Assembly (NCBI GenBank): GCA_964187785.1
Contig: OZ076409.1
Span: 33,110,001 to 33,174,000 of the forward strand
Source: Amphiscolops sp. MND2022
Taxonomy: Eukaryota
Length of the DNA stretch: 64,000 nt
Direction: 5' to 3'
Positions 22,600-58,016 of this stretch are shown in pieces. The notes beneath the pieces are model-generated. The model worked only from the letters and a program-made list of their open reading frames with translations. It made no database searches and was not told the DNA's origin. Every line of letters begins with the position of its first letter. Positions within the stretch are counted from its first letter, which is position 1. Made by a program: the position numbers and the translations under genes.

Positions 22600-23850
22600 A
22601 AGTGAATGGTGAATTGTTGTAGAAAAAAGGGTAAAGGTAGTGCGCTATGCTGTCAATGGAAAAGTACGTCCGATCGTGCAGAATTGCGGAAAACGGGGTA
22701 TCGGCGAAGACGTCCATCAGATACACTTAAAAAGAGGAAAGATTGTGCAATGGACGCTCGGGATCTAATAGAGAAAAGTGAATTTCGGAAACATCATGCT
22801 CGGTGAGTCGTGCCTTCAAATTTTCAAGGCAGTAGACAAGGACGTCTGCAGTCATGGGACAGCGCGGGTTCGATCTAGTTATGAGCAAATGGGTCATTTG
22901 AGGGAATCCGTCGACAAAAGATTGCTGTAACGTAAGTACGTTCCCGAGTTCGGGTCGTAACCGAAAGATGGAGTTGGTAAAATGCTCAAAAAATATGTAG
23001 AGAGGAGCAGCCGAACTTGTGTCTGAATTTGCAGGGCAACATTTGACTAGGTGATGTGGTGCTGGAGGAAGTCTTATTAGTCGTAACTGATATAATTCAC
23101 CAATTGAGGTCGAAGAGCACCGGGGTAAATAATTTCTCGTCCTGGTGCATCGATCTTGCCAAACCGAGCGTAGTAGCGAACGATTGTCGACATTAGCACG
23201 AGACCGCACATCAAGGGCGCTCAAGGCTGAGTGGACTGCGACAGGCTTGGGTAACACATGTGTCCACTCATCCAAAAAGCGAATACGAGGACAGCGTGTG
23301 AGAAGTGCGACATTTAGTTCAAACCACCAATGGATCTTCACTTTCCCACGAAATAAATCGATAATTTGGAAGCAAAGGATGAGGTCCGGTGTTGTTGCAG
23401 TACGCAAATTCTCCAGACAGCTACGCAAGTTGTTCGGATGAACCAAGTCAAAATTGCGGAGGGCGGTTATCAGCAGCCATCAGTCCTTCGCAGGCTGATA
23501 TATATCGCCCCTGCCTAAGATGTTGCAGTTACCTAGTATGTATCGTGGAGTAAGTCAGCGGTATTACAAGGTACAATTTGAACTGGTTCTCTCATAATTG
23601 AAAGGTCCAAAAGCGATGTTCGGGGGCACCGAAGGAATAGTGATTGGCAGTGTGAACTCAAGGCCTTGATGATCATGGGTCCATTCTTTGAATCGAGTAC
23701 AGGGAGCCTTGGCCACTTCCGATTCGGCCAATTTTGTTAGGATATGCTCCACCCAGAATGATGCGCTCTAGCCCTGTATATGTCTTTTAGGCGCGTATGA
23801 CATATCGATTGACCAAGCTGATAGAGGGTGCACTATTCGTGTCTACCATC
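22600..23850 (-). pseudogene. Accessory ORF3 (copy 1): tandem TARG1/OARD1-like macrodomain protein, disrupted
   Basis: ORFs 23564-23752 and 22727-23446 plus read-through of stops give WLLITA..NNLRSCLENLR and LVKCCPANSDTSSAA..RPELGNVL..HLLITR..CLENLKARLTEHDVSEIHF..LMDVFADT. Clearly homologous to 39767-41043. Confidence 0.62.
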
Positions 23851-28653: not shown

Positions 28654-28792
28654 ATGAAATATAGACTGAAATAAAGGACAGTGCAAACTGGAACCATGTT
28701 GAAAGGGTCTTTACGGAATGGAATTAGCCCGAGTTGAAGCATGGGCAGTCAGGAAGATAGGCAATGTGCCACAATTTCTGAAGGGATTAGGG

Positions 28793-29998
28793 TCTAAAAT
28801 CAACGCATTTTAGATCTTATTCATCTTCTCTAAAGAATAATTTTTGAAAGGAATAAGATCTAAAATCAACTGCATTTTAGATCTTATTCCCCTTGTCTGA
28901 AAGGAATAAGATCTGAATGCAATAAGATCTAAAATTTCAGGACGGAAATAAGATCTAGGTTCAATGCATTTTAGATCTTATTCTCCTTCTCTAAAAAATA
29001 ATTTCTGAAGGGAATAAGATCTAAAATCAATGCATTTTAGATCTTGTTCCCCTCAGAGAAGGGGAATTCTCTGAAAGGAATAAGATCTAAAATCATGATG
29101 ATACACATGATGATACACATGGCACTTGATTGATGACGAAGATCCACGATATCTGATAAAAGTAGAATAATAAGAAAAAAAACTTCAGAGAAGGGGAATA
29201 AGATCTAAAATCAATGCATTTTAGATCTTATTCCCCTTCTCTGAAAGGAATAAGATATAATTTATCAGGACCGAAATAAGATCTAAAATCAATGCATTTT
29301 AGATCTTATTTTCCTTCTGTAAATAATAATTTCTGAAGGGAATAAGATCTAAAATCAATGCATTTTAGATCTTATTCCCCTTCTCCAAAGAATAGTTTCT
29401 GAAGGGAATAAGATCTAAAATCAATGCATTTTAGATCTTATTCCCCTTCTCTGAATGGAATAAGATCTAAAATCATGATTTTAATCTTGCTCCCTTCAGA
29501 GAAGGGGAATAAGATCTAAAGAATAATTTTCGAAGGGAATAAGATCTAAAATCAATGCATTTTAGATCTTATTCCCCTTCTCTGAAAGGAATAAGATATA
29601 ATTTATCAGGACCGAAATAAGATCTAAAATCAATGCATTTTAGATCTTATTCTCCTTCTGTAAAGAATAATTTCTGAAGGGAATAAGATCTAAAATCAAT
29701 GCATTTTAGATCCTTTTCCCCTTCTCTAAAGAATAATTTCTGAAGGGAATAAGATCTAAAATCAATGCATTTTAGATCTTATTCCCCGTCTCTGAATGGA
29801 ATAAGATCTAAAATCATGATTTTAATCTTGCTCCCTTCAGAGAAGGGGAATAAGATCTAAAGAATAATTTCTGAAGGGAATAAGATCTCAAATCAATGCA
29901 TTTTAGATTTTATTCCCCTTCTCTGAAAGGAATAAGATCTGAAGGGAATAAGATCTAAAATTTCAGGATGGAAATTAATCTAAAATCAATGCATTTTG
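28793..29998. repeat. Palindromic minisatellite (GGAATAAGATCTAAAATCAATGCATTTTAGATCTTATTCC units)
   Basis: About a dozen near-perfect palindromes, plus half sites, separated by short CTTCTCTGAA/GAATAATTTCTGAAG linkers. Confidence 0.92.
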
Positions 29999-34299: not shown

Positions 34300-36160
34300 G
34301 CAAGTGCGTCCCCTGAACTTTACTTTGATCGCAAACCCCAATGAAACAGTGGATCTTTTCGTGAGTATCGAAAAGAAACTGTCCAAAAGCACTTAACTTT
34401 GAACTTCCGTGAAACTAAAGCATGTAATAGCGACTGGATAAACAACAGCATCAAATCAAAACTTGCGGAAAAACCTTTACACAAAAGCCTGCGGAAATAT
34501 CTGCATGATACGGATTAAAACCAAAAAAATATGAATCAGAGAACGTCAAGTGAACAGAATCATAAAAGCGAGAAAAGAGCATTATCACAAACAAAACACT
34601 GAATCAATTGAGAATGGTATGGAATTAATCAATGTTTTAAAAAAATCGTGTCTTCGGAAGCTTCTAGTTAACACAAAGGCCTCGTTGCTTTCTAAATGTC
34701 ATCAAACTCTTGGATTTTTCTTTTCAGTAGGCGCAACTCTTGCGTTTAATAACCAGACTAAATGTTTGGTTAATCAACTATCCTCTTCCGATGGAATTAT
34801 TCAATTCAAAACTACGAACAGCCAAGAGTTATCAGAAATCGTTCAGTCCTTGGAAATAATTATTTTTTTTTGGTCATGACCCAGTATTAAATGCTGTGTT
34901 AATATGTTCCCAGCCGGTTAGTTCTGCTTAAATAACCCTAAGTTTCAGTTACGGTTTCCATGACTCTGTTTGTTCATACTGCTTCAAGATATCGAAAGCT
35001 GTGTCACTTTACACGGTTAATTCAGTTTATGAAGTTAGAAACTACAGGCCAATTTCATTAACGACATAGTTAGGTTGAGTTTTTGAAAGACTTATATACA
35101 ATCGTGCTTGTATTTTTTTCCGAAATGTTTGAAGTTCTCTCTTCCACTCAGGCTGTTTTCCGTCGCAATTGTAGTAATATCGATGCTATATCTGTTCTTG
35201 TGAACAACATTCAAGCTTCTTCTTTGGAGAACAGTCAGCCCCTCAGTTGCTTTTTGGGCTTGCATAAAGTTTTTGATACAGTACACCGTAGCAAATGGAG
35301 GAACAAGCTTTATAATTGCGGCATCCGCGGTCGTGCTTTTGCCTCCCTTGATCGCTAGGCCCATTCAAATTATCAATCAATTGTTTGAGTCAAGGTGTAC
35401 CTCAGGGTTCTATTTTAGGTCCTTTATTATTCAATATTTACATAAAGGACCTCACAAAAGCAAGTCAAAGGGCTCAATGTGTGCTTTTTGCTGATGATAC
35501 TTCCGTTACTTTATCGAAGTTGGACAAAAATATAGTGAAGAGTGAATTGTCTTCTGTTGATTCATTGATGAAAATGAACAAGCTATCATTGAAAACCGAG
35601 AGAACAAAAACGATCCATTTCAACAAGAGCAATTCTGACTTGAATGGGTAATATGAATCTTAATGGTCAAATTTTCGAACAAGTTGAGTCATTCAAGTAT
35701 CTGGGTTTAAAACGTGATGAAAAACTATGCTCCCTCAGAGAATATCCAAGTATTATTGCTTCCAGTATCGGATTCGGAGACTATTCCAGCGAAAACATAT
35801 GTTGCATTTTTACAATTCTTTCATCAAACCAGACATACAATATGGTGGTTTAACCAGTGCATAAACGCACGAGTCAGTACTTGAAAGTTTTTTGAAACTT
35901 TAGAAGCGAAGAATTCGAATAGTTTTGTAATACACCGAAACACTAGTCGTATATGCTAGCGGCAAAATATATCATGAACCGGTGCCCTGGGCTTCATCGT
36001 GACTACTTCAATCTATTTTTCATCCGGGAAATTTCCATGCCCTACACAAATTGAATCTTCTCAAAGATGTATTAAAATAGGGGTAGTGTAGTAAGGCATT
36101 GTGCCTGTGACTGCCCCAGGTAGACAGCCTTATCTTCCAAAACCGAATGTATGTAAATAT
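34300..36160 (+). pseudogene. Decayed non-LTR retrotransposon (LINE, CR1/L2-like) reverse transcriptase with 3' end
   Basis: Motifs NYRPISL (~35040), FLGLHKVFDTVH..KLYNCGIRG, GVPQGSILGPLLFNIYIKDL..LFADDT and VESFKYLG, with many stops. A GGGGTAGT...ACTGCCCC stem-loop near 36080-36117 resembles a LINE 3' end. Confidence 0.8.
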
Positions 36161-36282: not shown

Positions 36283-37822
36283 AAATTAATTTTAATTATC
36301 TTATGTTTCAAAACATCCTAGGTCGGCTTCGACCCAACCTCGATATGATTGGATTAAGTGGCCACAAACGGAAACTAGAAAAACCGAAAAACTACACGCA
36401 CTCAGTTTTAGTTCGGTTGTTTTAGTCCCCGTTTCTTAATTTCAGAACCATCAAGTCACTATTTCGTGAAAGGGCGTGCAATGATAAGTAATGTTGTCTG
36501 AAAATCTCATTCAAGAGTTTTCTTTACGATACGGTCAGCTGGTGCTTTCACAACTAACTGGTACGAAATCGTACCTTTGTCCATTTAGGGTTGACTACGA
36601 ACAAATTTTTGTGCGGAGAACCTACCTGTTCACTGGATAACAATATTGAGTATCAAATTTAGCTCATTTCAGTATCCACTGCGACAAAAAAGGCAAAGTT
36701 GGTTTAATTATGGACATACAAGATTTTTGAAATGATCAAACACTTTTGAGAAGCTGCGCACTTAATGTGGAAGGAGTCATCCGCAGTTGATATTACGTGA
36801 ACATGTAGCTAAGCATGATCAGTAGAGCGACCTACTTTAGTATTAATTCACCTGTAAAAACAACTTCCCGGGTGTATGTACAACAAAACTTCACTTTACT
36901 GCAGGTTTTTTCAAGAGGCAATTTATGGTACTGAAGCAGAAGAAAATTCAAAACCTTTCTGCAAAAAAACTTCAGAATTGGACAAATTGCGTGAAAATGT
37001 GGCTGTTTTCACTTACTCGCCAATTCATTCATGCGACATTTGCGACTTTTCAGTCGTATGAAATCAAAAATCCTCAATAATGCTATCATAAATTGAATCT
37101 AAAAACAAGCAAAAGTTGTTGTTTGTACGTTTGATTTAATTCAACTATTTCGAGCAACTATATTACGTTTTATTCGTATTATTTAGTTCGCAACTATTGC
37201 AACTCTCCCTGTCTATTAGTATTCACTACCCGGGTCGACCTTCCGTGGATATCTTGGTAAGATCTTGGAAAAATCTTAGATAAGATCGTGAAAAGATATT
37301 GCCAAGAATTGCAAGATGCCATGGTAGGATCTTATAAGAGAGCCATGTTTCCAAGAAAAGTGTCACCAAGAAGCCCAATATGACAACAAAAATCTTACTA
37401 GGAAGCCGAATATGGCAAAAAAAATCGCTACGAACTGCTTGATATCGAGAAAAAGTTGAATCAGAAAACCATTAAATTAAAAGTTATTCGATTGTTTGTC
37501 ACCAAATCTTTTTTCCAACATTTCTGAAAAATAATCATAACTCAACTCGATTTCGAACTTTTTCTATTTTCGATCTGAAAGGAATATGATCTAAAATCAC
37601 CCAGACGGAAGATCTCCAATTTCACCCTGAAAAAAACCTTTTACGTCGGTTTTCATTTGACAGGAATAAGATCTAAAGCCACTGGAATAAGGCCTAAAAT
37701 CACAGGAATAAGATCTAACACCACTGAATTGAGAACCGAATCCATCGAAGGTCGTTTTGGGGAATTTTAGATCTTATTCCATGTATATTGCTAGGAATAT
37801 GCATGGAATAAGATCTAGAGTT

Positions 37823-38539
37823 TGTAACGGCAAGCTGTTGTCGGTCGCTTAACACGTTAACAGAGGTGGATGAACCTGCAGAAACGGGTATATCGCTCAG
37901 GACGGGCGCCCATCACCACAGATCCATTTTGCCTCCAGGGGTGCAATACGTCCCGAGGCCGTGGGTGCTTCGACGAATACTGTCCAACCGGTCCTAGTCT
38001 TTGATTGCTAATAGTAACGGGCATCTTCCTGACTCTCTGAAGACCACCGCCTAACTAGCTTGTAAAAACAATGCCAAGAATGAGGTAAATTTCCAATTTC
38101 AGGGTGACATGGGTACTAAGTTCTAAAATGGGGAATAACGTCTAAAATGCCAAAACTAGCGCTTGAGCTAGTTAAAACCAGTGAAAATACATCAGAACAG
38201 GCACAAATATGGCAAACCACACAGCTAGAAGTTGGGGCGCATGGGCTCCAAGCACCAAACAAGGATAATTAAGCCAAAAGACTCATTAAGGTAGCATAAA
38301 GCTAAAATCAAAGAAAATCAGGGTTAGCACCTGAAAAAGAGTCTATTTTTTAGAGTTTTGTAAGCGCATGGACTTCTTCGTTCTCTGTGTTCTCGCTCTG
38401 TCTTGCATGGAAAATGGCGAAAACAGCGAAAAGAGCAATCACATGCCCAGTGCCACGTCACACAGCGGATTAGAATTTTTGAGAAAATTGCTGAACATGT
38501 CCAAGTCGCAAAATTGCTGTACCAGAGGTTCCCGTTACA
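37823..38539 (-). repeat. 3' LTR (717 bp) with 8-bp terminal inverted repeats
   Basis: On the + strand it starts TGTAACGG (37823) and ends CCGTTACA (38539). On the - strand it is preceded by the purine tract CCGGGGAGTGA. Confidence 0.7.
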
Positions 38540-39766: not shown

Positions 39767-41043
39767 TTAGGTGATACCAGGAAACTGTCCAATGCTGGCA
39801 ATAGAGACATAGACGCGATCATGTAGAATAACTGTGATACCAGTTCCTGCAAAAAAGTCCATGACACTATGATAGAAGCTGTCCAAGCTGCGAAGTGGGC
39901 GCTCAGGGTCAACTATGGGGAAGTGAATATCAGGGATTTCATTGGACAATAATAAAGCTTTCAAATGTTCCAAGCATAGGAAGAAATCATCGGCGATTTG
40001 GGGTGCACGCTGGGAGCGGCGTGTTATCAGCAGGTGGACTATCAGGTTATCTAGGAAAGATGAGGCTGGGACAGTCAGGACTTCGCCAACTTTTGGGCGA
40101 AGTTGGAATATGTTTTCGACGCCACACTCGCGAAGAATGTAGCGCAAGGCTGCAGAATTAGTATCAAGGTCTACAGGGCATCATTTTGCTACATGGCCCT
40201 GCACTTGCAAGAAGTTAGTTTGGTCGTATACAATATAGTTGACCAAGTTGGGTCGTAAGGCACCAGGAAACACGATCTGACGTCCGGGTCCTTTTTCGTC
40301 AGCTGGATCGAAGTGGTTCTGTCCCCGAATAGCGGTCAAGTCCTGCCATACGGACCTTGATAGAGACTGATTATCCACATTGGCTGTCGACCATGCGTCA
40401 AGAGTACCCAGTGCAGTGTGGATCGTTACAGGCTGGTTAAAGGAATGAGTCCAATCAACCAAAAGGCGGATACGAGAAAAGTTACAATAAAAATCAACGA
40501 TGTGGAAGCAGAGAATTAGTTCCTCAGTAACCACAGTCCGCAAATTTTCTAGACAACTACGCAAGCTGTCAGGCCGGACCAACGAGTGAGTGTGAGAGGC
40601 AGTTACCAGTAACCACCAATATTGGGCAGGGCGATAGACTTCCCCAGACTGACATGTGACGCCGTATTTGTCAGATAGAAGGTCAACCGTAATACAGCGG
40701 ACTATTTGGATGGGTCTCTTTCAAAATTGAAAGGTCCAAATACAATGTTAGGAGTAACAGGAGGCACTGTGACTGCCAATGTGAATTCCAAACCGCGTAG
40801 ATCGCTCGTCCACTCCTTGAAACTGGGACAAGGTTCTTCAGCAACCTTGGATTTAGACAACTCTTCCAGAACGACATCTACAGGAAAAATTCGCTCTCTT
40901 TCTAGTCCGGTGTATGTCTTCTCTGCACGGATTACTACGCGACTAACAAGAAGTTTACCATTGTGGATAAGGGGTTGAGGCTTTGGACGGACCGGAGTTT
41001 TCGGACGTCCAATTGGAATAGTAGGAGACTTGTTCAGAGCCAA
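39767..41043 (-). pseudogene. Accessory ORF3 (copy 2): tandem TARG1/OARD1-like macrodomain protein, one frameshift and one in-frame stop
   Basis: Joined ORFs 40702-41043, 40181-~40700 and 39767-40147. Domain 1: IVRCITVD..CQSGEV..WWLLVTA..PDSLRSCLENLR. Domain 2: IVYDQTNFL..HVAK*CPVDLDTNSAAL..RPKVGEV..HLLITRR..CLEHLKALLLSNEIPDIHFP..VMDFFAGTGITVILH. Confidence 0.68.
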
Positions 41044-41217
41044 AACGCAAGTGCAATCGCGGAGTTCACAGGTTCCAGAGCGATATCTAGGTACTCGAAT
41101 ACGGCGTAGGTCATAGTGTGGGTTAACCTGTGAAGCGCTTTGGTCAACATCGGATGTAAGCTGCGCAGTGGGCGCTTCAGAATCAGAATCCGGTGTAATT
41201 GATGGTTGTGTGTCAAT

Positions 41218-44200
41218 TTAACGAGCAATCTGCCGTGAAGAGGTGGTAGTGTGTCCTCTGGGCCGCCGAGGAGGGCGACCTCGAGGACGTCCTCTGTGAA
41301 CTTGTCTTTGCGCGCGTGAGCGCAAATCCTGACAATGGGAAGGTGTACTTCGCGTTGAACCACGAGATAGAGCAGCTCGCGGCCTGCCCCTATTTCGCGT
41401 GCTATGGACGTTGTACCAAGCAGCTGGCTCGTCGGAGCCGGATAACTCAGTGTTACTGGTTTCAGTGTCCTGGAGGTTAGAGATGCCATCCGGCAATGGG
41501 GGAACACTGACTGGCACATCCGTCAATGAAGGATTTGTCAAAAGAGGAGCAGATGTACCCGCTAGTGATACCTGTGCTTCTGTTGTTGCCGTGGAGGCAT
41601 CTTGTGTTTGAGCTGCGTCCGGGATAACTTCAGGTTCGGAAAATAATGGTAGCTGATCGTTAAAGGCAGGTTTATGTGACATAGGTTGTTCATCGGGAGG
41701 CACTGAAGCGTCAACTAGTGCAGGAAGTTCAGCCTCTGAAGGATTTGGCTCATCGGACAGCAAGTCTGCAGAGCGCTCACGCTCTGGGTCGGAGGTGGAA
41801 TAGTCAAATTGCTGGTAGTGGAGACGACTGCCTCCGGCTCGCATTCTAGTACGCAACCTCGTGTCCATCCAGTGGCGTCTCCTTGATGGTAGCGATACAT
41901 CTGATGCTTCAGACAGCGGTTCCTCCTTGCGATACGGAGGTTGTGAGCAGTCATCTAAGATCTCCTCAGCTGAGTGCTCGGGCTCAGGATCCATTACAAC
42001 GACCACTTCGCCATTCCCAGCGGGGAGAGCAACAAACTCCGTAGGTCCACCATGATGAGGTTTGAGTCGCTCAAAGTGCACTTTTTGTCCTGAGTCTAGG
42101 ATATAAACACGGCCATCTTGTAGTACACGGACAACCTTGTGCGGATCACGCCAAGCTTTCATCAACTTCGGTGATCCCTTTTGAGGTACATAGCGGCAGA
42201 ACACCCAAACAGGGTCTCCTACATTATATGCGTTCCCGCGAATAGCGTGATCATACTTCAGTTTTTGACGTAGTTGCGCCTGATGCGTGTTTCTACGCAC
42301 CAAGTCATGAATCACTGGTTGCCGAGCCAGAATATGCTCTACATAGGCTCCATGCAATTCAAATGATCTGGCTGCGAACTCAGGATAGAGAAAAGTGAGG
42401 GGAATTGCTTTTTCGGTCCCTCGGTTCAGCATGTAAGGTGAGAACCCAGTCGCTGCGTGGCGCGTTGACATACGCTCCCATGACTTCGTCCAAGTGCTGG
42501 TCCCAGTCTCTCATGCGACGCGAGCAGAATACCCGTAACAGGGTCCGCAAAGTTCGATTTTGTCGCTCAACCAGGCCTTGACTGCGCGAGTGACCCGCCG
42601 TAGAGGTGACTTTTGTGACCTGGGATGCCCTCATGAACACGTTAGACACCTCTGCAGTCAAATTGGGGCATTGTCTGATTGCATGCGCGTAGGCGTGCCG
42701 TGTCTGGCAAACCATTTCTGCAACAGTAACCTAGACGTGGTTAGCGCATCGTAATCTTCATGGCTGCAGGTACAACCTCCGCAAACTTGGAGAAGTGATC
42801 AATTATCACCAGAATGCCCGTGTTGTTGCTGTCTGAGGGGCAAACTTTAAGATGGTCGTACTGGACCAACTCATTTAAATACCCACTTTGGATCTTTTTG
42901 AGGTGAAATCGAACGTCACCCGGTTTTGTCCCGTACTTGCTGGCATGTGAGGCACTGACTCACGTATTGACCAACGCTACGACGAATGCCTGGCCAGGTA
43001 TGGCGTTCCTGTATTCGCGCCAGCACCTTAGCAATGCCTTGGTGGCCCATTGCATCGTGAGCACGAAACAGAATTTCATGCTGGTACAGTTGGGGCATTA
43101 CAATCATGCACGGACGCTCGTGCAAAGGACGTTGCCGAGGTGGATATTTCACACAAAGAACCCCATTTTGGTTGATGAACAGGAGATATTTTTTCTGCTT
43201 GTGATAGTTATGTGCGAATGCGCGTACGTCCTCAGGAAAAACGTCGTGATCGATGGATTTTTGTGCCACCAACTTCTTTATGGCTAACACATGCACGTCA
43301 CGGTTTTGTGCCAAAAGCAGATCTTTGATGCTATGCACCGTGTTGGCATGTTCAGGGAGTTCCGTGTCTATCTCTTGAGTAATCTTCCCTAGCTTCCTCA
43401 GTGACGTCAATCCAGTCCTCGGGATAATCTGGATAAAAGTCTTCGTGTGTCTGCAATGTATGCATCGGTGCCTCAGGTAGAGGAGCGCGCAGCGCCCTCT
43501 CCCTTATCTCAGCTGACTGGTGGCGCTTACGCCGTCGTGCAACACGACAAACTTCCTTTTTGTGGTCTGGTTTAGTATTCCGCAAGTGAGCGAGAAGCTG
43601 GGGGTGATTGGGTACCACTCGACCGTGCAAGTCGAACCAAGGTGTAACGTGCAGCTGGTCAAATTCCTCCTGTGAGAGGAAATTCCATTTGTCCGCAACG
43701 GGTGGCAGCTTTTTGAGCTGCTTTTCTCGCCATTGATAATCGTTGGTTCGTTTACTGAGTCCATCGGTATTTTGATGCTGAGTTCTAGGACGATGCTCCA
43801 CCGTGAAATGATACTTTTCAAATGTCATAATCCATCGACCAATCAAGGCCTGATCAGTGGAATAAGTTTTCAGCCAAGAAAGTGCTTGATTGTCAACCCT
43901 CAGGTTGAACTTTCTGGCGCAAAGATAGCTGTGACTTTTGAGAACGAAATAAAAAGCTGCGTACATTTCAAGCTTAGGAGCGCCATACTTCGCTTGAGTG
44001 GCATTCAATTTTTTGCTCCCGTACACAATTGGTCTCAGGCGCCTTTCGCCCGGAAGACCTTGCCACTGATGCAAAATTCCAGAAATTGCAACAGCACTGG
44101 CATCAGTGTCCAGCACAAGTTCGCCCTCAGAATCCGGTTGCGCCAAGGCAGTTGCTTCAATCAAAGCTAACTTAATGGCGTTGAAAGCCTGTTGCTGCTC

Positions 44201-47200
44201 ATCCCCCGGGCGAAATTCGCACCCAGGCCGGTAATAGCATGCAAGGGGGCCACAAGTTTGGCATGTCAGGGAATAAACTCGCGATAATAATTGGCGAAGC
44301 CCAAAAAGCTTTGCAGCTCTGTCTTGTTCCTGGGTACTTCCCAATCGCGCAGTTTAGACACTGCTTTAGGGTCCGGTTTGATATCTTCGGCAGAGACCAC
44401 ACGTCCCAGGTACTTGATTTCCGACTTCACAAAGTCACACTTAGCGACTCTCACCTTGAAGCCAGCTTCTCGCAGACATTCAAACACCTCGCGTAAGCGT
44501 ACCATGTGGCTCAACTGTACGCCATCACCATGCTCCCTTCCCGGTTCACGCGCTCGCGCTATGACTTGTTGAAAAGTAGCTGAAACGTCACACCAAAGGG
44601 CATCCGGCGACATTCAAACAAACCCAGCTCGCAAGCAAATGCCGTCTTCTGCCTGTCTGCTTTGCGTACTGGTATTTGCCAGAAAGCCCAGGCCAAATCG
44701 ATAGTGGTGTAGATCTTGGCCTTACCCAAGCGAGAGAGGCTTTCGTCAATGCGCGGAAGGGGATACGCGTCTTTTATGCTCACTGCGTTGAGGGGGCGAA
44801 AGTCGCAGCAGAAACGCAACTCCCCATTCTTCTTCTTGACCATCACAATTCCACTCGCCCAAAGTGACAGCGAGGGTTGGATCATGCCCAAAGCGAATAG
44901 TTTGCGAACTTCCTGAATGGCGCGCTCTGCTTTCTCGCGCGACATCCGTCTGGCTCCTTCTCGATGAGGTGTAGCTCCAGGTTCAACCTCGACCGTATGT
45001 TTGGCAATTTTACAGCTTTACGATGTCCGCTTTGTGCTTCATGAAGAGGTCGTCAAATTCAGTTAGGATGTTATCCAGAGAGTCGCGGGCAGTTTGTCCC
45101 CACAACTTTTGCACCTCCTCCAACTGAGACACGGGTCCAGGAATAGGGGCCAATAGATAAGGGTCAGTGCGTTTCCTGACCTCGCGCGCTGACAGCCCCT
45201 CCTCCGACGGGTCTGTTGAGGAAAGAAACTCGAACTCCGATGACGACGGAAACTTTGATTGGGAGCTCAGATCAATTTCAGAATAGATCTTGTTGACAAA
45301 ATCGTTTGGGGATTTTGATTTTTGGTCACTTTCTTCTTTGTGCACTTGAGCACATTGAGGAACTGCATGATAGACCAGGCGTACTGGCGCAGCAGTACCA
45401 AGCATGGTGCCACTTTTCACTTTCTGAGCATTGCTTGTCAGGTTGCCAACAGAGACATAGAATACACCTGTCTCTCCGACAGTGGCTATAGTGTCTTCCA
45501 CGAATATAGTGTTCTTCAACACTCGGTTCGATGTTGCAAAGTTAATCAACACATTTCTGAAAGCGAAAGCTTCCAAGTCCGAAGTGGCCACCATGGCAGG
45601 TAGAACAGCACGCCCAAATGGCTGTAGCACCACGTCTTGATCCAAAACTACTGTACTGGATAAAGTTTCATCGCTCGTTTGGGCGTGTGCGTGATGCCAC
45701 ACGGGCTTAACCGGGGCTCGCGCCAGTATTTTCATGGCGGTCAGGTCTACGAGCACGTTATATGCTCTTTGGAAATTCCGATCCAGCAAGAAATCCTCCA
45801 ATCCATGTGCATCATCGAAAACCACGAAATTGGTTTCGAGTTCATATCCACCAAGTTGGAAGCGCACACGCTCCGCTATTCCAAACGTTTTTATCGTCTT
45901 CCCGTTAGCAGCATACAAGTCGATTCGGTGAGGTTGTAGCGCTACGCCTGTCTGCAAGGCTACACGGTTGAAGGCTGAGAAACTCATGATTGATACGCCT
46001 GACCCTGTGTCGACCATTCCTCTCAGTGGAATAGGGTTAGCATTTGGCACTGCGAAAGATACCACGAGCGACGCACGCTCATCAATGAGGGCCTCAACTG
46101 TGGGCTCCTGCCTGCTGATGCTATAGCAGCGTAATTCTTGTGGCCCTAGACACACTCCTTGAGGGAACACATCTACTACCACGCTAGCATCAAATTTCAT
46201 GTCCACGCCATCTATGTTTGCATGCACAGGAACTGGGGTGTACGCCGTGCACGCACTAGCTTGGCCTTCAGTATACCACTCTTTTGGCAGTGGTAAGGAG
46301 ATCCTTTTGACAGTCGGATTGCTAGCTAACTCCAGCTTCATTTTTTCCAAAGTCAAATCCGGGCGTATTTGTTGTTCCGAGGCTAGCATTAGGTGTACAG
46401 ACAGTATAGTTCGGCCACTAGGGTGAAATGTTGTGGACTCCAAACTTGTATGCACCTGCTTTGTGCCACAGGTAACTGTCAGTGGAGCATTTACAGTGGG
46501 TTGATCGGCTGGACGTAACAACAACACCCTGTAATAGGCAGTGGGTGCATTTTGCGCTGCATCAGCTTTCTCCTCCACTTCAGCCCTCGAGCTGAAAGTT
46601 TCCGATTGAATAGACGATGTTGGCCAATCTGCAAATACATCAGTTGTGCACGATTCCACAGGGGCAGCAGGCGCTGAACTCGCAGCAGCAGCAGCAGCAA
46701 CTTGCTGAGATTTACTATCTGGGTCCTGAATCTGACGTCTATCCGCAGAATGCACTACTAGCTTGCGTCTAGAGCAAGCACTCTCCACACAGCGCGAGCG
46801 CTGAGATGAGGTTGCGTCCTGCCTACAAACGGGAGTTGTGTGCACCGAGGCGGCCGGCACTTGTTCACCTTGCAGGGACTGATAAGTTCCAGACTCAGTA
46901 CGTCCTGGGTTACAGGGCTGCCGTTGGTGACGTCGCCTCTGAAGTTCTTGTACGGTGAACCGCAATGATTCTACAGTAGGTGGTTCTGTTAGATATGCCT
47001 CATACACCACCGTCAGTTCTCGTTGCAACACGGGATCACTGACCCCGTCCATGAAACGATGGAAGATTTCATAGCGTCGGGTAGTGAGAGGCTCATCAGG
47101 AAAGCCCTGACTCCTGAGACCTTCCAATGCATCTAAATATTGCATGAGTCCTCTTTTTCAAATTGGCTTCGCAACCTGAAGGCCTGCTTCACCGGCCAGC

Positions 47201-48189
47201 GACTACTTCCCGTCCCAAATCTCCTGGAGAGCAAGGTACTCCTCACATTCTCGTGAGAATCCCGATCGGACTCCGGTTTGTTGATTGGGTAACTCCGAGC
47301 TTCTTCACCTAAGTGATCGGTTATAGCCCAAGCTTTGTCAACAGGTGCAGAATTCAATAATACTTGTTCCAGATACCGTTTCATAACGAGCAGCCACTCA
47401 TCAATAGTTCCATCCTTCGAACCACGGTATGCGGTTGGTCGGACTGCTGTTTGATCACGATTAGCAATTAAGGGGGCCAACTCTTCAGACATGGCTTTGG
47501 ATATCGCCTCCGTGACTTTCAACTGTTCGGGTGATCTGAATTCACTTTTGGTATCACTGGTACATGAGTTGCGCTCTGACAACCCGTCGTCAGCGGTGTG
47601 ACCCACAGGCGACGCATTAGCAATGCCGATGGTTGTGTTGTTCAAGGATTTTGCGTCTGCAACCTCATCTATTGTAGGCGCTGTCATCGGTTCAACCTTG
47701 GTGTCGTTTGACAAGTTAGTTGTGAGACTTTTAAGGAAAACGGGTTCCTTCCTGCTGATGCGATGGAGTAGTGGCACACATCGCCTGTATCTGCGTTAGA
47801 GCTTTGTTCATTTCAGCAATCTGCTGGGTCAGCTCCCGGACATTTCCTTCAGCTTTCTCCGTTTTCTCAGTTTTTTTCTCCAATAGTTCTCTGAGGATAT
47901 ATGATCTTCTCGACGATGTTGAACTGGAGGTGGATATTATCGTCTCCCTCTCCGACTCGGTAGCCCGCGAGCTACCTATCATTACGTCTGTAAAATCAGA
48001 GTCAACTCTGAAACTGTCTCGAGAGGGCCAGTCTTCCTCGTCCAAATCATCGAAATTAGTTTATTTATCTGACATTTGGGGTTCATTTTTGACCTTCAAG
48101 GGCGGTTCATCAATTGGTTGTGCTGCGCTGGTGCCCTCTCCCCCCTTCAAAACGAAGCGGAGGCGCTCAAATTTCTTCGATCGTTTCAT
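41218..48189 (-). pseudogene. Gypsy gag-pol, frameshifted (capsid, aspartic protease, dUTPase-like spacer, RT, RNase H, integrase)
   Basis: Gag: YRGSKDGTIDEWLLVMKRYL. PR: MVDTGSG. RT: LRFCCDFRPLN..DAYPLPRIDE..IDLAWAFWQ, with the YxDD region deleted. RH: LDTDASAVAISG..LEM..VDNQAL. IN: AHDAMGH..CLTC and GLVERQNRTL. Confidence 0.93.
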
Positions 48190-50767
48190 TTCAGATTCAG
48201 ATAGTTCACAACGGCTTTGAAAGAATTTCTCGTGTACCCAAATGTAGTCTCCGGGTCGAAGTCAAGATAAATTCTAACGGTCACAGCGCGCTGTAATTTT
48301 CTCCACACGTTTGACGCTACTCGTTGGGCTAAGAGAACTGCTCTCGGGCAGTTTGTGGCAGTGATGTTGGATAATGCGCAACAAACACACTGTTGAGCCG
48401 TTTTTTGATCTCTCAGCCTCACTGAATTTGGGTATGTTGTGACTAACCAAAAATGTTGTCGGCAGAGCTGACGTGTTACTCGGTGTTCAAGCTACTTGAC
48501 ACAGCTGAATAACACCTGTTTTGGATAAAAATGCTGTCGAAAAGGTTGTAAACTCGGGCAAAATGGTCAAACTTTATGACACCAAGGATTTACTCCTCTC
48601 AAAATCTCGTGATTCTGGTTAAGTCGGATTTCTCAGGGTAGTTTCTGGATATTCAATACCCTGCTCGGGCTCACAGAGTAACACCTAGAGACATTTCGTT
48701 GACGAAATTCAGTCGGAAGTGGGTCGCAGGCACTAAAAACCTCCGATTGGGGGTTTATCGGGAACAAATTTTAAAGTTTCAGTGGAGTCAAAATTTATGA
48801 CCCCTGCCGGCAATTTTTTTGAACTGTAGTATTTGCCTCGTTTGCACCCAGGAAGGCCTACCAGATCCGTTTGGTTGGAAAATGAAGGCTTTTGGTCTCT
48901 GCCTTCCGTAGAGCGGGAGCACTAAGGTTTTATGTTTTCGTTTTATTGACGGTTTTTCGGGATTTCGGCCAAAACGTGTCTCTGAGCACAGTCAAACTCT
49001 GTTTTGTTAGGCGTACTGGGTGAAAAAATGCACAGCACGTTTGCTCAGTCACGCAAGTTGGAGAAATGACCTCACGAAGCTGATAACTACGTCCAGCTCT
49101 AAGCTAGGGCCTTTTTCACAAATTTTTGAAGTTTTCAAAATTTTTCGAAAAACACTACAGTGGCTCTTACAAACACTGGAGACGTAAGATCAGGCTCAAA
49201 ATTAGCCACGCGATCGCACGTATAGCCAGGTACACTGTGACAAGCACCAATTGGGGCTCAGACTATTGAATGAGTTGCAGATGCTGTACAGGCTTTCCGT
49301 ATCACCGTGTCTTATGGGGACACGATTTCTCACGTGCAACCAAAGACTCTTGTCCACAGCGTTGAGCTCGCGAGCTCTATTTTTCAGCAACGGTGCACCA
49401 AACGACACTGACAGCAATGGTCCAAAGCCTTGTAGTCCCAACGTTGCGATGAGGTGCGGCGACAACTCCCAAAAATGGTCCAACTCGTTACGATACACAG
49501 GATATCACAACTGTAAGTAACAAGATGCTATGTCCCAGCAGAGCAGCACACTCGATATTGACCACAATTCGCACGTACAGCAATGAATTCACGAATAGGA
49601 GTTCAAACAAAGGGGTTTTCACAAGTTTCCAACACGTAAAACTGGGTTTTGTCCCACTTTCCAAGTTTTCGTCTCGGTGAAGACTTAAGCCATACTCACG
49701 ATATGTACGTCTCAAGTTGGTGGAAATCACTTGTATGGGTCGGAGCGAGTTTAAATTCACTCAAGCAGTTGGTACCAACCCACAAGCTCAGAAAATGAGC
49801 TTAGATCGAAGCTACACTTTCGTTGAGACGAGCACGAGACGTTTACAACAAATTTTGAACTTTTTCGGAAGGTACAAAAAAAACACAAGTGGCACGTATT
49901 CGTCACTCAAGGGTCGGATCTGGCTCAAAATTGACCAGAGGATCCTGCAGACACGTAGGTACACGGAATTGAGCATTGATATGGGCTCCGAGGATTGTAA
50001 ACTGTTTCGCCTTGGTACAGACGTGCGGTTCTCCTATGTATCAGTAGGAGTCAGAATGCACCCTTATAACACAATTTCCAAACACCGGTTTGAGTTATCG
50101 GCTTGGTTTTCTGGCTATCAATGCACCAACTAGCACAAATTACGTCAGTGGGGTGCAATTCGTCCCCACTTCCCGGCTGGAGTGTTCAGGCACTTCCAAA
50201 AAATTTCGAAAAATTTGTTTTTTTGCACCTCTTTTTGTGCAGTACGTTTTTGCCAATTTTTCAAGAAATATTGTACCAATCGGCTTGAAACTTGGCAGGC
50301 GCTGCCAGTGGGCACCCACAATGCTGGTTCAATGGTCTGATGGAAGCCCGCGAGCTTTCCTGGAATTCCGACTGGGTCCCGACACTATCTCAACAAAAAC
50401 AGTACTTTTTGACACTTTTTTTACAAATTGGCTAAGAGGGTCGACACTACCAATTTTACGGCAGGCACATAAGGGTCAAAGTGTTGCCCCACTGGTCACA
50501 GCACTGCCACAAGCCCTCAATTAGTAGTGCCCGTTAGGTATGAGGCGCTGTCGGTCCTACAGTTTTCGAAATTTTCGGCTAATTTAGCTCGACTTAGTTT
50601 TTCTCGACTTTGATTAGCGCTAGGGTCACCAAATTTTCGGCACTAGTATTATGTTTTGTGGTGGTTACGAAAATGCAACCAGTTTTTAGCAAGGGTTCCG
50701 GAATCTTTGACCCGACCCTAACAATTGGACAGTCCGGTTTTGTGGAAATTTGGTCAAATTCAGTGCG

Positions 50768-51135: not shown

Positions 51136-51840
51136 ACCTGTAATCACTAAGAAAACGTTACCAACTCTTTTGAATCCTATTTTTGGTACTGCGGGGTGTA
51201 CCCCAAACTAATAACAGCGTGGAAGAGGCAATTACATTACTATATGGCACTCTGCCGCTAGTATTTCATGGTGGTTTTTTGCCAATTTCGCTAAAAACTG
51301 GGTTTTTTTATACAAAATGCGTCCCAAAAAGGACTCCAACGGCTTTCCTGGTGGACATTACATTACGTAGCAGAACTCTGAAGGTTTTGAGCTGCTTTCC
51401 ATTTTTGCAAGTGCTGTGATTGATACCTAGAGCGTTTGAGCTCGTACCAGGAAAAACACTCAAAAATGCTAAAAACGACGTTTTTGCAACTTTCGCACTC
51501 GAAAACGCACTTTTTTCACAGAAAACAGGTGCCAAAGCACACACTACGTTGCAACAGGGTAAAACTAGCATGCACAAATGATTTTCTGTCCAAAAATACA
51601 CAATCGAAAAAAATGAGGGGTGGTACCTTCGTCGTCCTTTTTCTCAACATCCAGACCAACCAGAGAGAAACGGGGTAGACCGTCGGCAACGTCAGTGTTT
51701 GCTCTAGCTTTCCACCAAAAATCATGCTTCTAGCACGTCTCCACGGGAAATGGGAAAGGATAGTCGGGAACACTCGTTTCAGCTCATCTATCAGTCAGAT
51801 GGAACATGGCGCATCCATCAACTGAATAAGCAAATATAAG

Positions 51841-52119
51841 AAGGATAATTAAGCCAAAAGACTCATTAAGGTAGCATAAAGCTAAAATCAAAGAAAATCA
51901 GGGTTAGCACCTGAAAAAGAGTCTATTTTTTAGAGTTTTGTAAGCGCATGGACTTCTTCGTTCTCTGTGTTCTCGCTCTGTCTTGCATGGAAATTGGCGA
52001 AAACAGCGAAAAGAGCAGTCACATGCCCAGTGCCACGTCACACAGCGGATTAGAATTTTTGACAAAATTTCTGAACATGTCCAAGTCGCAAAATCGCTGT
52101 ACCAGAGGTTCCCGTTACA
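51841..52119 (-). repeat. Partial 5' LTR (279 bp)
   Basis: About 98% identical to 38261-38539 and starts TGTAACGGG on the - strand. Homology stops abruptly at 51841. Confidence 0.85.
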
Positions 52120-53023
52120 GTTCCGCAAAATGACTCTCTCTCTCTCTCTCCAAATTGATTCTCTCCAATTTCATATAGAAAACCCCTGAATGGACCAAAA
52201 ACAGTGTACGTCGAATCTCATTTTAGTGGATTAGGATCTAAAACCACTGATCATTGGAATAAGGACTCAGATCTCTGGAATAAGATTTAAAAATCCACCA
52301 AAATGTCGATGTTTTAGCCAATTTCACCCCCGAAAGCCCCAAAAAATTTCCAAAAAAACTTTGTAGGTAGGTTCTCATTTCACCTTCGTAAGATCTAAAA
52401 CCACTGGAATAAGGTTTGGATTCACAGAGAATTTGAATCTTTACAGGAAATCAAGGTCCAGGCTGAGAAATAGCGTGATGACCCGGCAAAAGAGTTATTA
52501 TACGAATGTAGCTATTTGCAGCACCCTTGATATAAAGTTTGAAATTTTAGAATTTTTTCGATCTTAGTAAGATTCGATCTTGGAATGATCTTGGTAAGAT
52601 CTTAGTGAGAATCTTGCCATGGGATCCATGGCTGCCAAGATGTAGTAAGATTTTGGCAAGATCTTGCCAGGACAGCCAAGATGCTAGTAAGAGGGTCAAC
52701 CCGGGTAACTAGTTTTGTACTAAATAATTTTTCGAGAAATTTCTCCTTTGAAACTAAAAACAATTGATCTTGCTTTTCTTCCCAAATGTTTTTTATTTGA
52801 GGCTTTTATAGGGATGAGATACTTATAACTTTCAGTGACGTTGTATCATCAAACATCATTGCTGTTTTCAAACATGTTGTATCATCGTTTATTTTACATC
52901 GTTTTCTATCATGAAATCCAATTACCTTGTTCGCTGCTTAAATTGGGCGTTTCCAGATTTTCCCGATATAACTTCTAATCTTTTAGCTTCTAATTTCACT
53001 GTGCAATTCGACGTGAACTTTCT

Positions 53024-55045: not shown

Positions 55046-55771
55046 GTACAAAATTGAAAAGGTTCAAGCAATTGGTAGAGAAAACTCTCGTGCAATTCAG
55101 ATCAAAAAGCCAAAAAATAGGCATCCCAAGAGAAACAGAACTGCTTATTCGGCGTCCACACCGCAGAATTGGGGTGACTATGATTTCTTTTCTTAAGCCA
55201 CATCACAAAACGTTCTCAGCGGAAAAAAATCTAAATTGAAGATTCAAAATAAACGACAATAATTGTACAACAAAAAAATTACAAAAAAACGGATATACAA
55301 AGAAATCGCAAATGACCAGAACTGACACTACAACAGATAGCAAAGTTCCCTTGTGCGGGTTGGGTGCAGACTCCTGCATCTTTAGGAAAGACTACAGGCG
55401 AAACTCGCTGAAACAAGCAGTGGTAAAGTTATTGGGCCAGCATTCACCTCACATAACTTGAAGGACTCAGAAACAACCGGAAATTGCAAAACTAGTATTT
55501 TGATATTAGGACCATATCGGCACAAATTTACGACTAATTTCACGGAAACTTCTACCGGAAAATCAATTCGAACTCATTGCCAAATAGTTTTTTGGAACAA
55601 TTTTTTCGAAACCTTAGAAGTTTCACCAAAAAATGAAAAGCTACATTTCACAATAAAAAAGCCGCAATGTATGAAGGAAATAATAATACTTAGATTTTTA
55701 AAACACGAAAGGCTGCAATCCCAAAGCGGAGATCCAAAAGTCCAAAACTGACACTAGACCAGATAGCAAGA

Positions 55772-57295
55772 CGTTATTCCACAAATATAGTGATTTTAGA
55801 CGTTATTCCCCAAATAGTTATTTTAGACGTTTTTCCACGAAAATAATGACTTTAGACGTTATTCTACCAGAATACGGTGACTTTAGACAATATTCTAGTG
55901 GAATACCGTGTTTTTAGATCTTATTCTACCACAAAATAGAGTGATTTTAGACGTTATTCCACAAAAATAGTGAGTTTAGACGTTATTGCCCAAAAAAATG
56001 ATTTTCGAAGTTGTTCCACAAAAATATTGATTTTAGACGGTATTGCCCAAAACAGTGATTTTAGACGTTATTCTGCAAAAATAATGATTTTAGACGGTGT
56101 TCTACAAAAATACGGCAATTTTAGACATTATTCCAGTAGAATACAGTGTTTTTAGATCTTATTCTATCAAAATAAAGTGATTTTAGACGTTGTTCCACAA
56201 AAATAGAGAGTTTAGACATTATTGCCCAAAAAATGATTTTAGAAGTTGTTCTACAAAAATATTGATTTTAGACGGTATTGCCCAAAAAGTTATTTCAGAC
56301 GTTTTTCCACGAAAATAATGACTTTAGACGTTATTCTACCAGAATACGGTGACTTTAGACATTATTCTAGTGGAATACCGTGTTTTTAGATCTTATTCTA
56401 CCAAAATAGAGTGATTTTAGACGTTGTTCCACAAAAATATTGATTTTAGACGGTATTGCCCAAAAAAGTGATTTTAGACGTTATTCTGCAAAATAATGAT
56501 ATTAGACGTTGTTCTACAAAAATACGGCAATTTTAGATATTATTCCAGTGGAATACAGTGTTTTTAGATCTTATTCTATCAAAATAGAGTGATTTTAGAC
56601 ATTATTCCACAAAGAAGTGATTTCAGACGTTATTCTACAAAAATACGGTGATTTTAGAACTTATTCTAGTGGAATACTGTGTTTTCAGATCTTATTCTAC
56701 CAAAATAGAGTGATTTTATACGTTATTCCATAAATATAGTGATTTTAGACGTTGTTCCCCGAAAAAGTGATTTTAGACGTTATTCTGCAAAAAAAAGATT
56801 TTAGAGGTTATTCTACAAGAATTCAGTGATTTTAGACATTATTCCAGTGGAATACAGTGTTTTTAGGTCTTATTCTACCAAAATAGAGTGATTTTAGACG
56901 TTATTCCACAAATATAGTACTTTTATAGACGTTAGTCCTCAAAAAAATGATTTTAGACGTTATTCCACGAAAATAATGATTTTAGACGTTGTTCCCCAAA
57001 AAAGTGATTTTAGACGTTATTCTGCAAAAAAAATGATTTTGAAGGTTATTCTACAAGAATTCGGTGATTTTAGACATTATTCCAGTGGAATACAGTGTCT
57101 TTAGATCTTCTTCTACCAAAATAGAGTGATTTTAGACGTTATTCCACAATTGTAGTGATTTTAGACGTTATTCCCCAAAAAAGTGATTTTAGACATTATT
57201 CCATAAAATTATTGATTTTAGACGTTATTCCACCAGAATACGGTGATTTTAGACATTATTCTGGTAAAATACAGTGACTTTGGACGTTAATCCAA
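55772..57295. repeat. ~28-30-bp minisatellite (GTGATTTTAGACGTTATTCCACAAAAATA-like) with recurring multimer pattern
   Basis: About 50 tandem units. The variant TTTTAGATCTTATTCTACCAAAATAGAG recurs periodically. Confidence 0.92.
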
Positions 57296-58016
57296 TAAAA
57301 TGAAGTTTCTGGGTCTTTTTTTGAAAAAGAAGTCATAGAAATGAAATACAATGTCCCAAAATTTAACTGAATTTTTCGGATTAGAAGTTTTCATTTCCGA
57401 AAAATTTGTTGATTTTTCCTCACGAAAAACACGTAATTTTTCAACTCATGCGGACGACTTCAACAGAAACGCTCGCAAAAACCATTAATAATCCTTCTCG
57501 TCAGTTTGTCATATTTTCTGAAAATATTTGACGCTGAAAAGGTTGAAAAAATAATTCAAACTTCAACCAATCAAAACAGCCTAATTTTAATTTTCTGTTT
57601 TAAAGTAGTTCCCTAAAAATGCCGTCTAGAACTTTGTTAAGGAATTGTTTTTGTTTCTCATAACCCGAAAAGTGATAAATATTGCCTATTCCGACAGTTT
57701 TCATCCATGAAAAAAGTTTTTACATCGAAAAAAATTCCAGTAATACGAATTTGTTTGCCACACTGGCACACGTGAAAATTTTGTTTACATCCTATGTTAG
57801 CGTCAGCACTTATAAAGTTTGAGGTTTTCCCCGCAAAAACATGGATTTCGGGGGATTTTTTCTTGAACTTCCTTGATGTTGCTCTGAAAACCCGCCAAAT
57901 TGTATAGGAATCATAATAAAACCTGTAGAAATAGCATTGCATCAGGAAAATACTTTAGCAATAATGATTTTCCATGAAACTCCTAAAATCATGCTAAAAG
58001 TGTTTGGCAACCTATA

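Follow-up and report, generated by a model that had tools for sequence, protein, structure and literature searches.

The peptides singled out by a sequence-only reading of the window (the whole stretch of 64,000 nucleotides analysed here) are encoded on the minus strand, at 40720-40181 and 40180-39767, 3' of the integrase in a Gypsy element (Table 1). The element belongs to a high-copy Gypsy family, of which it is a decayed copy, and is flanked at both ends by AAC (37820-37822 and 52120-52122). Its terminal module, which comprises two units, is interrupted by three lesions: a one-base frameshift and a TGA, both of which the sequence-only reading had recognised, and a 51-nt in-frame gap, which it had missed. 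Neither the TGA nor the gap occurs in any of the 23 other older copies examined. A stop at 41220-41218 seems to split the module from pol in the window and is absent from the fetched natural copies.

Table 1. Features of the module-bearing Gypsy element and of a second relic in the window.
Feature	Position	Strand	Basis and remarks
Gag-Pol, single frame, broken	39767..48201	-	Gag, protease, RT, RNase H, integrase, linker, macro pair; tblastn with a natural 3,052-aa ORF, Pfam
3' LTR, TG..CA	37823..38539	-	followed by target duplication AAC
5' LTR, truncated, 282 bp, 98% identical to 3' LTR	51838..52119	-	preceded by AAC
Unit 2, predicted TARG1-like pseudo-macrodomain	39821..40252	-	Foldseek, VIA; TGA at 40183-40181 in the window copy
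Unit 1, predicted shortened TARG1-like pseudo-macrodomain without loop 1	40457..40749	-	Foldseek, VIA; in the window copy, a frameshift of one base near 40716 and an in-frame gap of 51 nt near 40485
N-terminal extension, conserved, folds with unit 1 in the model	40750..40956	-	pLDDT 87.9, pTM 0.82 (218-aa piece); lineage pN/pS 0.03
Inter-unit segment, conserved, low model confidence	40253..40456	-	pN/pS 0.09
Cys4 cluster CxxC-x3-CxC	41047..41079	-	in all four families
RGRP repeats in low-complexity linker	41272..41298	-	Pfam AT_hook weak
Tandem module in second, diverged Gypsy relic (45% aa identity)	22637..23758	-	

A first look at the 1.07-Gb genome returned 601 DNA candidates, 40 of which were scored. 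The module was free of stops in 98 of the 113 best-scoring protein matches, a set picked by score and hence biased towards intact copies. All seven fetched full-frame copies of family A, which were chosen for long frames, contain a single ORF of 3,048-3,054 aa with the module at its end. In one copy of each further family the ORF is 3,192 (B), 3,292 (C), 3,134 (D) and 3,116 aa (D2) long, and in the fetched copies of B, C and D it likewise ends with the module. The order within the natural ORF is Gag, protease, reverse transcriptase (RT), RNase H, integrase, a low-complexity RGRP linker, the CxxC-x3-CxC cluster and the two units. The module region is the in-frame C-terminus of a Gag-Pol of ~3,050 aa in intact copies, continuous with the integrase, and not the separate ORF of about 420 codons that had been proposed. 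The pair of units is kept in four young families (A-D), among which the modules are 41-60% identical; the three families besides A are each represented by many near-identical copies. The RGRP motif of the linker is presumably AT-hook-like; the Pfam AT_hook profile gives no more than a weak match (E 0.2), in 6 of 45 members. Metal binding by the Cys4 cluster is a guess.

The module had also been described as an accessory ORF occupying the env position. It is, however, the tail of Gag-Pol, has no hydrophobic stretch above threshold and no predicted transmembrane segment, and relatives possess a separate ORF after pol besides. This second ORF of families B and C (1,430-1,533 aa; L100:2116-6405 and L102:1863-6461, 37% identical to each other) marks a post-pol slot distinct from the module. 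It has no Pfam or PDB match, is not env-like, is absent from families A and D, and contains a stretch which, by eye, we take to be SGNH-like. A remnant of an ORF of this type lies in the window at 22465-20514 on the minus strand.

The LTRs and the order protease-RT-RNase H-integrase agree with Ty3/Gypsy elements, and it is on domain order that the clade would be assigned to this superfamily; the 4-6-bp target duplication of Ty3/Gypsy, in contrast, is not what the tandem-module clade displays. The LTR of family A measures 773 bp and reads TGTAAC..GTTACA in 30 of 30 cases, and its target duplication is 3 bp long at seven of seven solo LTRs and four of five LTR pairs (loci L119-L148). A 3-bp duplication was likewise found in families B, C, D and D2, at a single element of each. 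According to the accessible text of Kojima (2025, PMC12440569), the duplication is 3 bp long in Troyka elements and 4-6 bp in other LTR elements. Troyka also shares the single Gag-Pol, but its ends are CG..CG instead of the TG..CA of families A-D, and in the same text its LTRs are shorter (100-400 bp versus 712-773 bp), as is its internal part (up to 7.7 kb versus ~12 kb or more). Membership in Troyka was rejected because of the TG..CA ends and long LTRs, despite the 3-bp duplication. Literature searches, which covered papers outside Repbase and supplements, found none on TG..CA elements with 3-bp duplications. LTR finders that expect duplications of 4-6 bp would tend to miss the tandem-module clade.

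Several minor observations concern the ends of these elements. The LTR pieces of the window copy at 51838-52119 and 38258-38539 are 98% identical, although the copy carries many breaks and is no more than 89% like any other; either mobilisation after decay or gene conversion would account for the near-identity. A primer-site-like TGGCGACCACAGAGGGA is found 16 nt past the 5' LTR in natural copies, and the spacer between ends in a T run. Two elements of 7.7-8.0 kb (L211, L212) are bounded by family A LTRs of 99.9-100% identity and contain no more than one ORF, of 344-455 aa; they are probably non-autonomous derivatives.

No Pfam macro family was detected on the module in any of 45 members, and annotation will therefore have overlooked it. 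Against the PDB, sequence and profile searches produced weak matches to TARG1 only (E 1.8, 0.03 and 0.014), and the ESM Atlas yielded leads only (0.88-0.91). The C-terminal 421 aa of a natural copy were modelled with AlphaFold2 (pLDDT 73, pTM 0.53, the relative packing of the units being uncertain). In a Foldseek search with this model TARG1 occupied the top eight rows through unit 2 (best E 9e-11, TM 0.76-0.84), the match of unit 2 having a TM of 0.81 at E 9e-11; VIA aligned 138 residues of unit 2 with TARG1 (Z 16.9, rmsd 2.4). Unit 1, folded alone as a 218-aa piece (pLDDT 87.9), also had TARG1 at Foldseek rank 1 (E 1.5e-5), and in VIA (Z 10.6, rmsd 2.8, 115 aligned) TARG1 tied with DarG and 2AFC. 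In unit 1 a gap spans loop 1 and the beginning of the first helix, and the unit is part of a larger 218-aa entity with extra strands. Both units are hence predicted from the models to adopt a macro fold of the TARG1 subtype, with human TARG1 (OARD1, C6orf130; PDB 4J5Q, 4J5R, 2LGR) of the DarG/Poa1p group as top match.

The two TARG1-like units which the sequence-only reading had placed 3' of the integrase are in this way borne out by predicted structures, and its idea of TARG1-type ancestry followed by duplication gains support. Its description of the units as internally similar holds in part: the tandem repeat is established by structure, but sequence likeness between the units is weak by itself (hhalign P 3.9%, 45 columns). 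Against a library of viral structures, macro-type matches were obtained, with no named retroelement among the 50 matches listed, many of which are nameless.

The register between unit 2 and TARG1 is ungapped over 78 residues, and a single offset of six relates the residues of the PDB chain to the published G43, I44, K84 and G123. The counts for unit 2 come from at most 36 aligned sequences, many of them related or decayed copies and so not independent events. With this in mind, the position of the catalytic K84 holds Arg in 35 of 36 sequences and Lys in one, G43 is replaced by Ala in 35 of 36, G121 by Asp in 34 of 35 and G123 by Glu in 31 of 35, while the position of D125 is never Asp. Loop 1 (G41-A-G43-I44 in TARG1) reads x-S-A-A/M and loop 2 (G121-C-G123-L-D125) reads D-P-E-R-P/S, confirming in alignments the earlier observation that the glycine loops are replaced (GAGIA to NSAAL, GCGLD to DPERP). 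The register of unit 1 is weaker; in it the K84 position is Ala or Ser in 52 of 56 sequences, and loop 2, less surely aligned, reads D-x-Y-R-G. In the alignments the residues for ADP-ribose binding and catalysis thus appear replaced in both units.

D20 and D125 of TARG1 have known roles in the pocket. Unit 2 keeps the equivalent of D20 (31/35), which we take to be the adenine-binding Asp near the N-terminus, as well as that of D37 (30/36), and a Ser and an Arg in it are invariant. These conserved residues make a remodelled ligand pocket possible. The accessible text of PMC8501950 gives K84 of TARG1 as catalytic and K84A as inactive, and that of PMC5928194 reports that TARG1 with G123E or G43E neither binds ADP-ribose nor is catalytically active, yet still binds RNA. 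As judged from the alignment, the G123E-type change of unit 2 corresponds to a laboratory mutation that kills TARG1, whereas G43 to Ala is milder than the G43E of those tests. The term "reader or eraser" used earlier is contradicted by the replacements of K84, G43 and G123, with which the alternative of a pseudo-enzyme agrees. In all four families the net charge, the only charge property calculated, is -2 to -9 for unit 2 and 0 to -2 for unit 1, while five of six motif-retaining single domains of other lineages carry +9 to +11.

Selection was assessed against one natural intact copy, a change being called shared when 12 or more of 24 older copies have it. Shared changes in unit 1 comprise 19 synonymous and 6 replacement differences (pN/pS 0.10) and those in unit 2 comprise 29 and 15 (pN/pS 0.15), as compared with a pN/pS of 0.65 in the linker. 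Private changes give 0.95 in unit 1, 0.90 in unit 2 and 0.75-1.04 everywhere, as expected after insertion. Since dS between families is saturated, omega was taken solely from the comparison of family D with D2, where it is 0.12 and 0.08. Across families the units are 44-64% identical, slightly less than the Gag capsid (52-71%). The macro pair is under purifying selection, with a pN/pS of 0.03-0.15. The absence of a macro fold, or neutral evolution with no intact copy, had been named beforehand as grounds against the macrodomain reading; the structure search found the fold, with TARG1 first for both units, pN/pS is low and intact copies are present in the genome, so neither ground applies.

A Pfam Macro scan of the genome led to further Gypsy elements with one TARG1 domain each, which fall into three lineages (L153, L155-L158, L175-L210, L217). 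Elements of clade E have separate gag, pol and env-like ORFs, and the TARG1 domain ends Pol (TARG1 E 1e-26); the target duplication is 5 bp in the four elements with clear ends. Among the 30 clade E loci read, most retain the Thr-Lys and Gly-x-Gly-x-Asp motifs, those without being L175-L177, L179, L181, L188 and L189. The domain lies between protease and RT in the third lineage and between RNase H and integrase in the fourth, of which one locus was read. The first three lineages are ~25% identical to one another in RT, and hhalign aligns the unit-2 profile with the domain of clade E at a P of 91.6%. The TARG1 domains of the four Gypsy lineages may have been captured separately or have passed from one element to another; the macro tree, with 23 rows, long branches and no resolution at the base, does not reach the donor or the number of captures. 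No clear host TARG1 gene could be picked out among the element matches of the genome.

Some further observations were made on these loci. The env-like ORF of clade E (L156:4719-7067, L158:5491-8073) contains an internal peptide that is hydrophobic and, at its C-terminus, a transmembrane stretch; it has no match in Pfam or the PDB. Another multicopy ORF family, represented by L213:1492-2439 on the minus strand and by many frames of 834-845 aa, carries a motif-intact TARG1 domain at its end. Three loci (L149, L150, L151) are probable host macrodomain exons, by eye MacroD-like and macroH2A-like.

With regard to function, the reading preferred here, with a confidence that falls just short of even, is that the macro pair is a non-catalytic protein-docking adaptor on the integrase tail, with a predicted TARG1 fold and a dead site. 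It is drawn from the chromodomain-like place of the module, the dead-site substitutions, the conserved surface and the neutral-to-acidic charge; as the working residues are absent, a docking module is likelier than an enzyme. A Gypsy ancestor would have acquired a TARG1-type domain, like other lineages of this genome, and the domain would have lost ADP-ribose binding and then been duplicated before families A-D split. The D-x-x-R that both units have in place of the GCGL loop hints that the loss came before the duplication, in so far as a weak unit-unit alignment and a tree without resolution at its base allow. Being part of one ORF, the module would be made one-to-one with Gag and be packaged. 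Behind the RGRP linker and the Cys4 cluster it would tether the integrase or the particle to a chromatin protein or a host protein, at the site where chromoviruses carry a chromodomain. Fusions of integrase to chromatin readers are common in Gypsy elements according to the accessible text of PMC12477816.

The same data may be read differently. That the module is a separate accessory gene at the env position, or a neutral relic, is suggested by the window copy alone, where a stop and a frameshift cut it off; the module lesions are private to that copy, intact copies have the module in frame, and selection is purifying. Both versions are therefore rejected, with hardly any residual probability. 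Scarcely more credible is an active ADP-ribose eraser working by altered, Arg-based chemistry, in spite of the TARG1 fold, the conserved Arg at the catalytic position and the conserved aspartates, for loop 2 is occupied by D-P-E, K84 is gone and unit 1 has no loop 1. Binding of nucleic acid (element RNA, cDNA ends or G-quadruplexes, at packaging, reverse transcription or integration) is a better, still decidedly unlikely candidate. The accessible text of PMC2674928 describes the SUD of coronaviruses as a tandem macro pair that binds G-quadruplexes and not ADP-ribose, and RNA binding is retained by TARG1-G123E (PMC5928194, in its accessible text), but by net charge all four families have an acidic unit 2 and a neutral unit 1.

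Counter-defence is the least improbable of the rivals, if on balance unlikely. Here a remodelled pocket or a decoy, the latter raised by the sequence-only reading with regard to PARP defence, would bind a modified substrate, a nucleotide signal, or host PARP or TARG1, and so blunt restriction based on ADP-ribosylation. TARG1-type domains in four Gypsy lineages, at different positions in Pol and mostly motif-intact, suggest that ADP-ribose matters to such elements; unit 2 conserves a changed set of pocket residues, and single domains that have degenerated are seen repeatedly in another clade (L175-L177, L181). On the other hand, the phosphate site is closed in the manner of G123E, a domain that probably is unable to bind ADP-ribose would be a poor sponge, and the low pN/pS gives no sign of domain-wide positive selection or an arms race. 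The docking adaptor remains the preferred reading.

Some retroelement polyproteins carry macrodomain annotations in domain databases. Fish epsilon-like ERVs carry macro ORFs (PMC4977317) and the Gypsy Pol of Ectocarpus carries NADAR (PMC12477816), in the accessible texts of both sources; those domains are single and differently placed, whereas the present module is tandem, degenerate and on the integrase tail. From TARG1 itself it differs in being tandem and fused to integrase, in the replacement of K84, G43, G121, G123 and D125, and in a unit 1 shorter by ~25 aa. With SUD-N/SUD-M of coronavirus nsp3 it shares tandem macro folds in a polyprotein and, by the available description of SUD, a lack of ADP-ribose binding that is probable for the module; SUD is, however, of X-domain type, and the module is TARG1-type, acidic and part of a retrotransposon. 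Chromovirus chromodomains and other Gypsy reader domains occupy the same C-terminal position in Pol (PMC12440569 and PMC12477816, accessible text), but the module has a predicted macro fold in two copies and a putative targeting role. The uptake of ADP-ribose domains by retroelements is thus known, but searches outside Repbase, subscription papers and supplements found no report of a tandem pseudo-TARG1 attached to integrase, nor of any macrodomain in the Pol of a Gypsy element.

Hosts use ADP-ribosylation against viruses and phages, and the present elements bear on whether they also turn it on retrotransposons. A tentative and rather doubtful proposal is that ADP-ribosylation constitutes an unrecognised front of conflict between animal hosts and LTR retrotransposons, with repeated uptake of TARG1 erasers by Gypsy lineages and, in an unreported lineage with a 3-bp stagger, a dead duplicate serving as an integrase-guiding or defence-blocking module. 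The genome offers a natural panel in young families: intact TARG1 at three Pol positions, singly degenerate domains and the tandem dead pair, all assayable in isolation.

Positions 1-20500 of the window are a satellite array with a unit of ~720 bp, and at 28783-29927 and 55769-57325 there are short palindromic repeats and 29-bp tandem repeats, all from a single motif family (GAATAAGATCTAAAA-like). A remnant resembling, by eye, a non-LTR reverse transcriptase lies at 35074-35853 on the plus strand.
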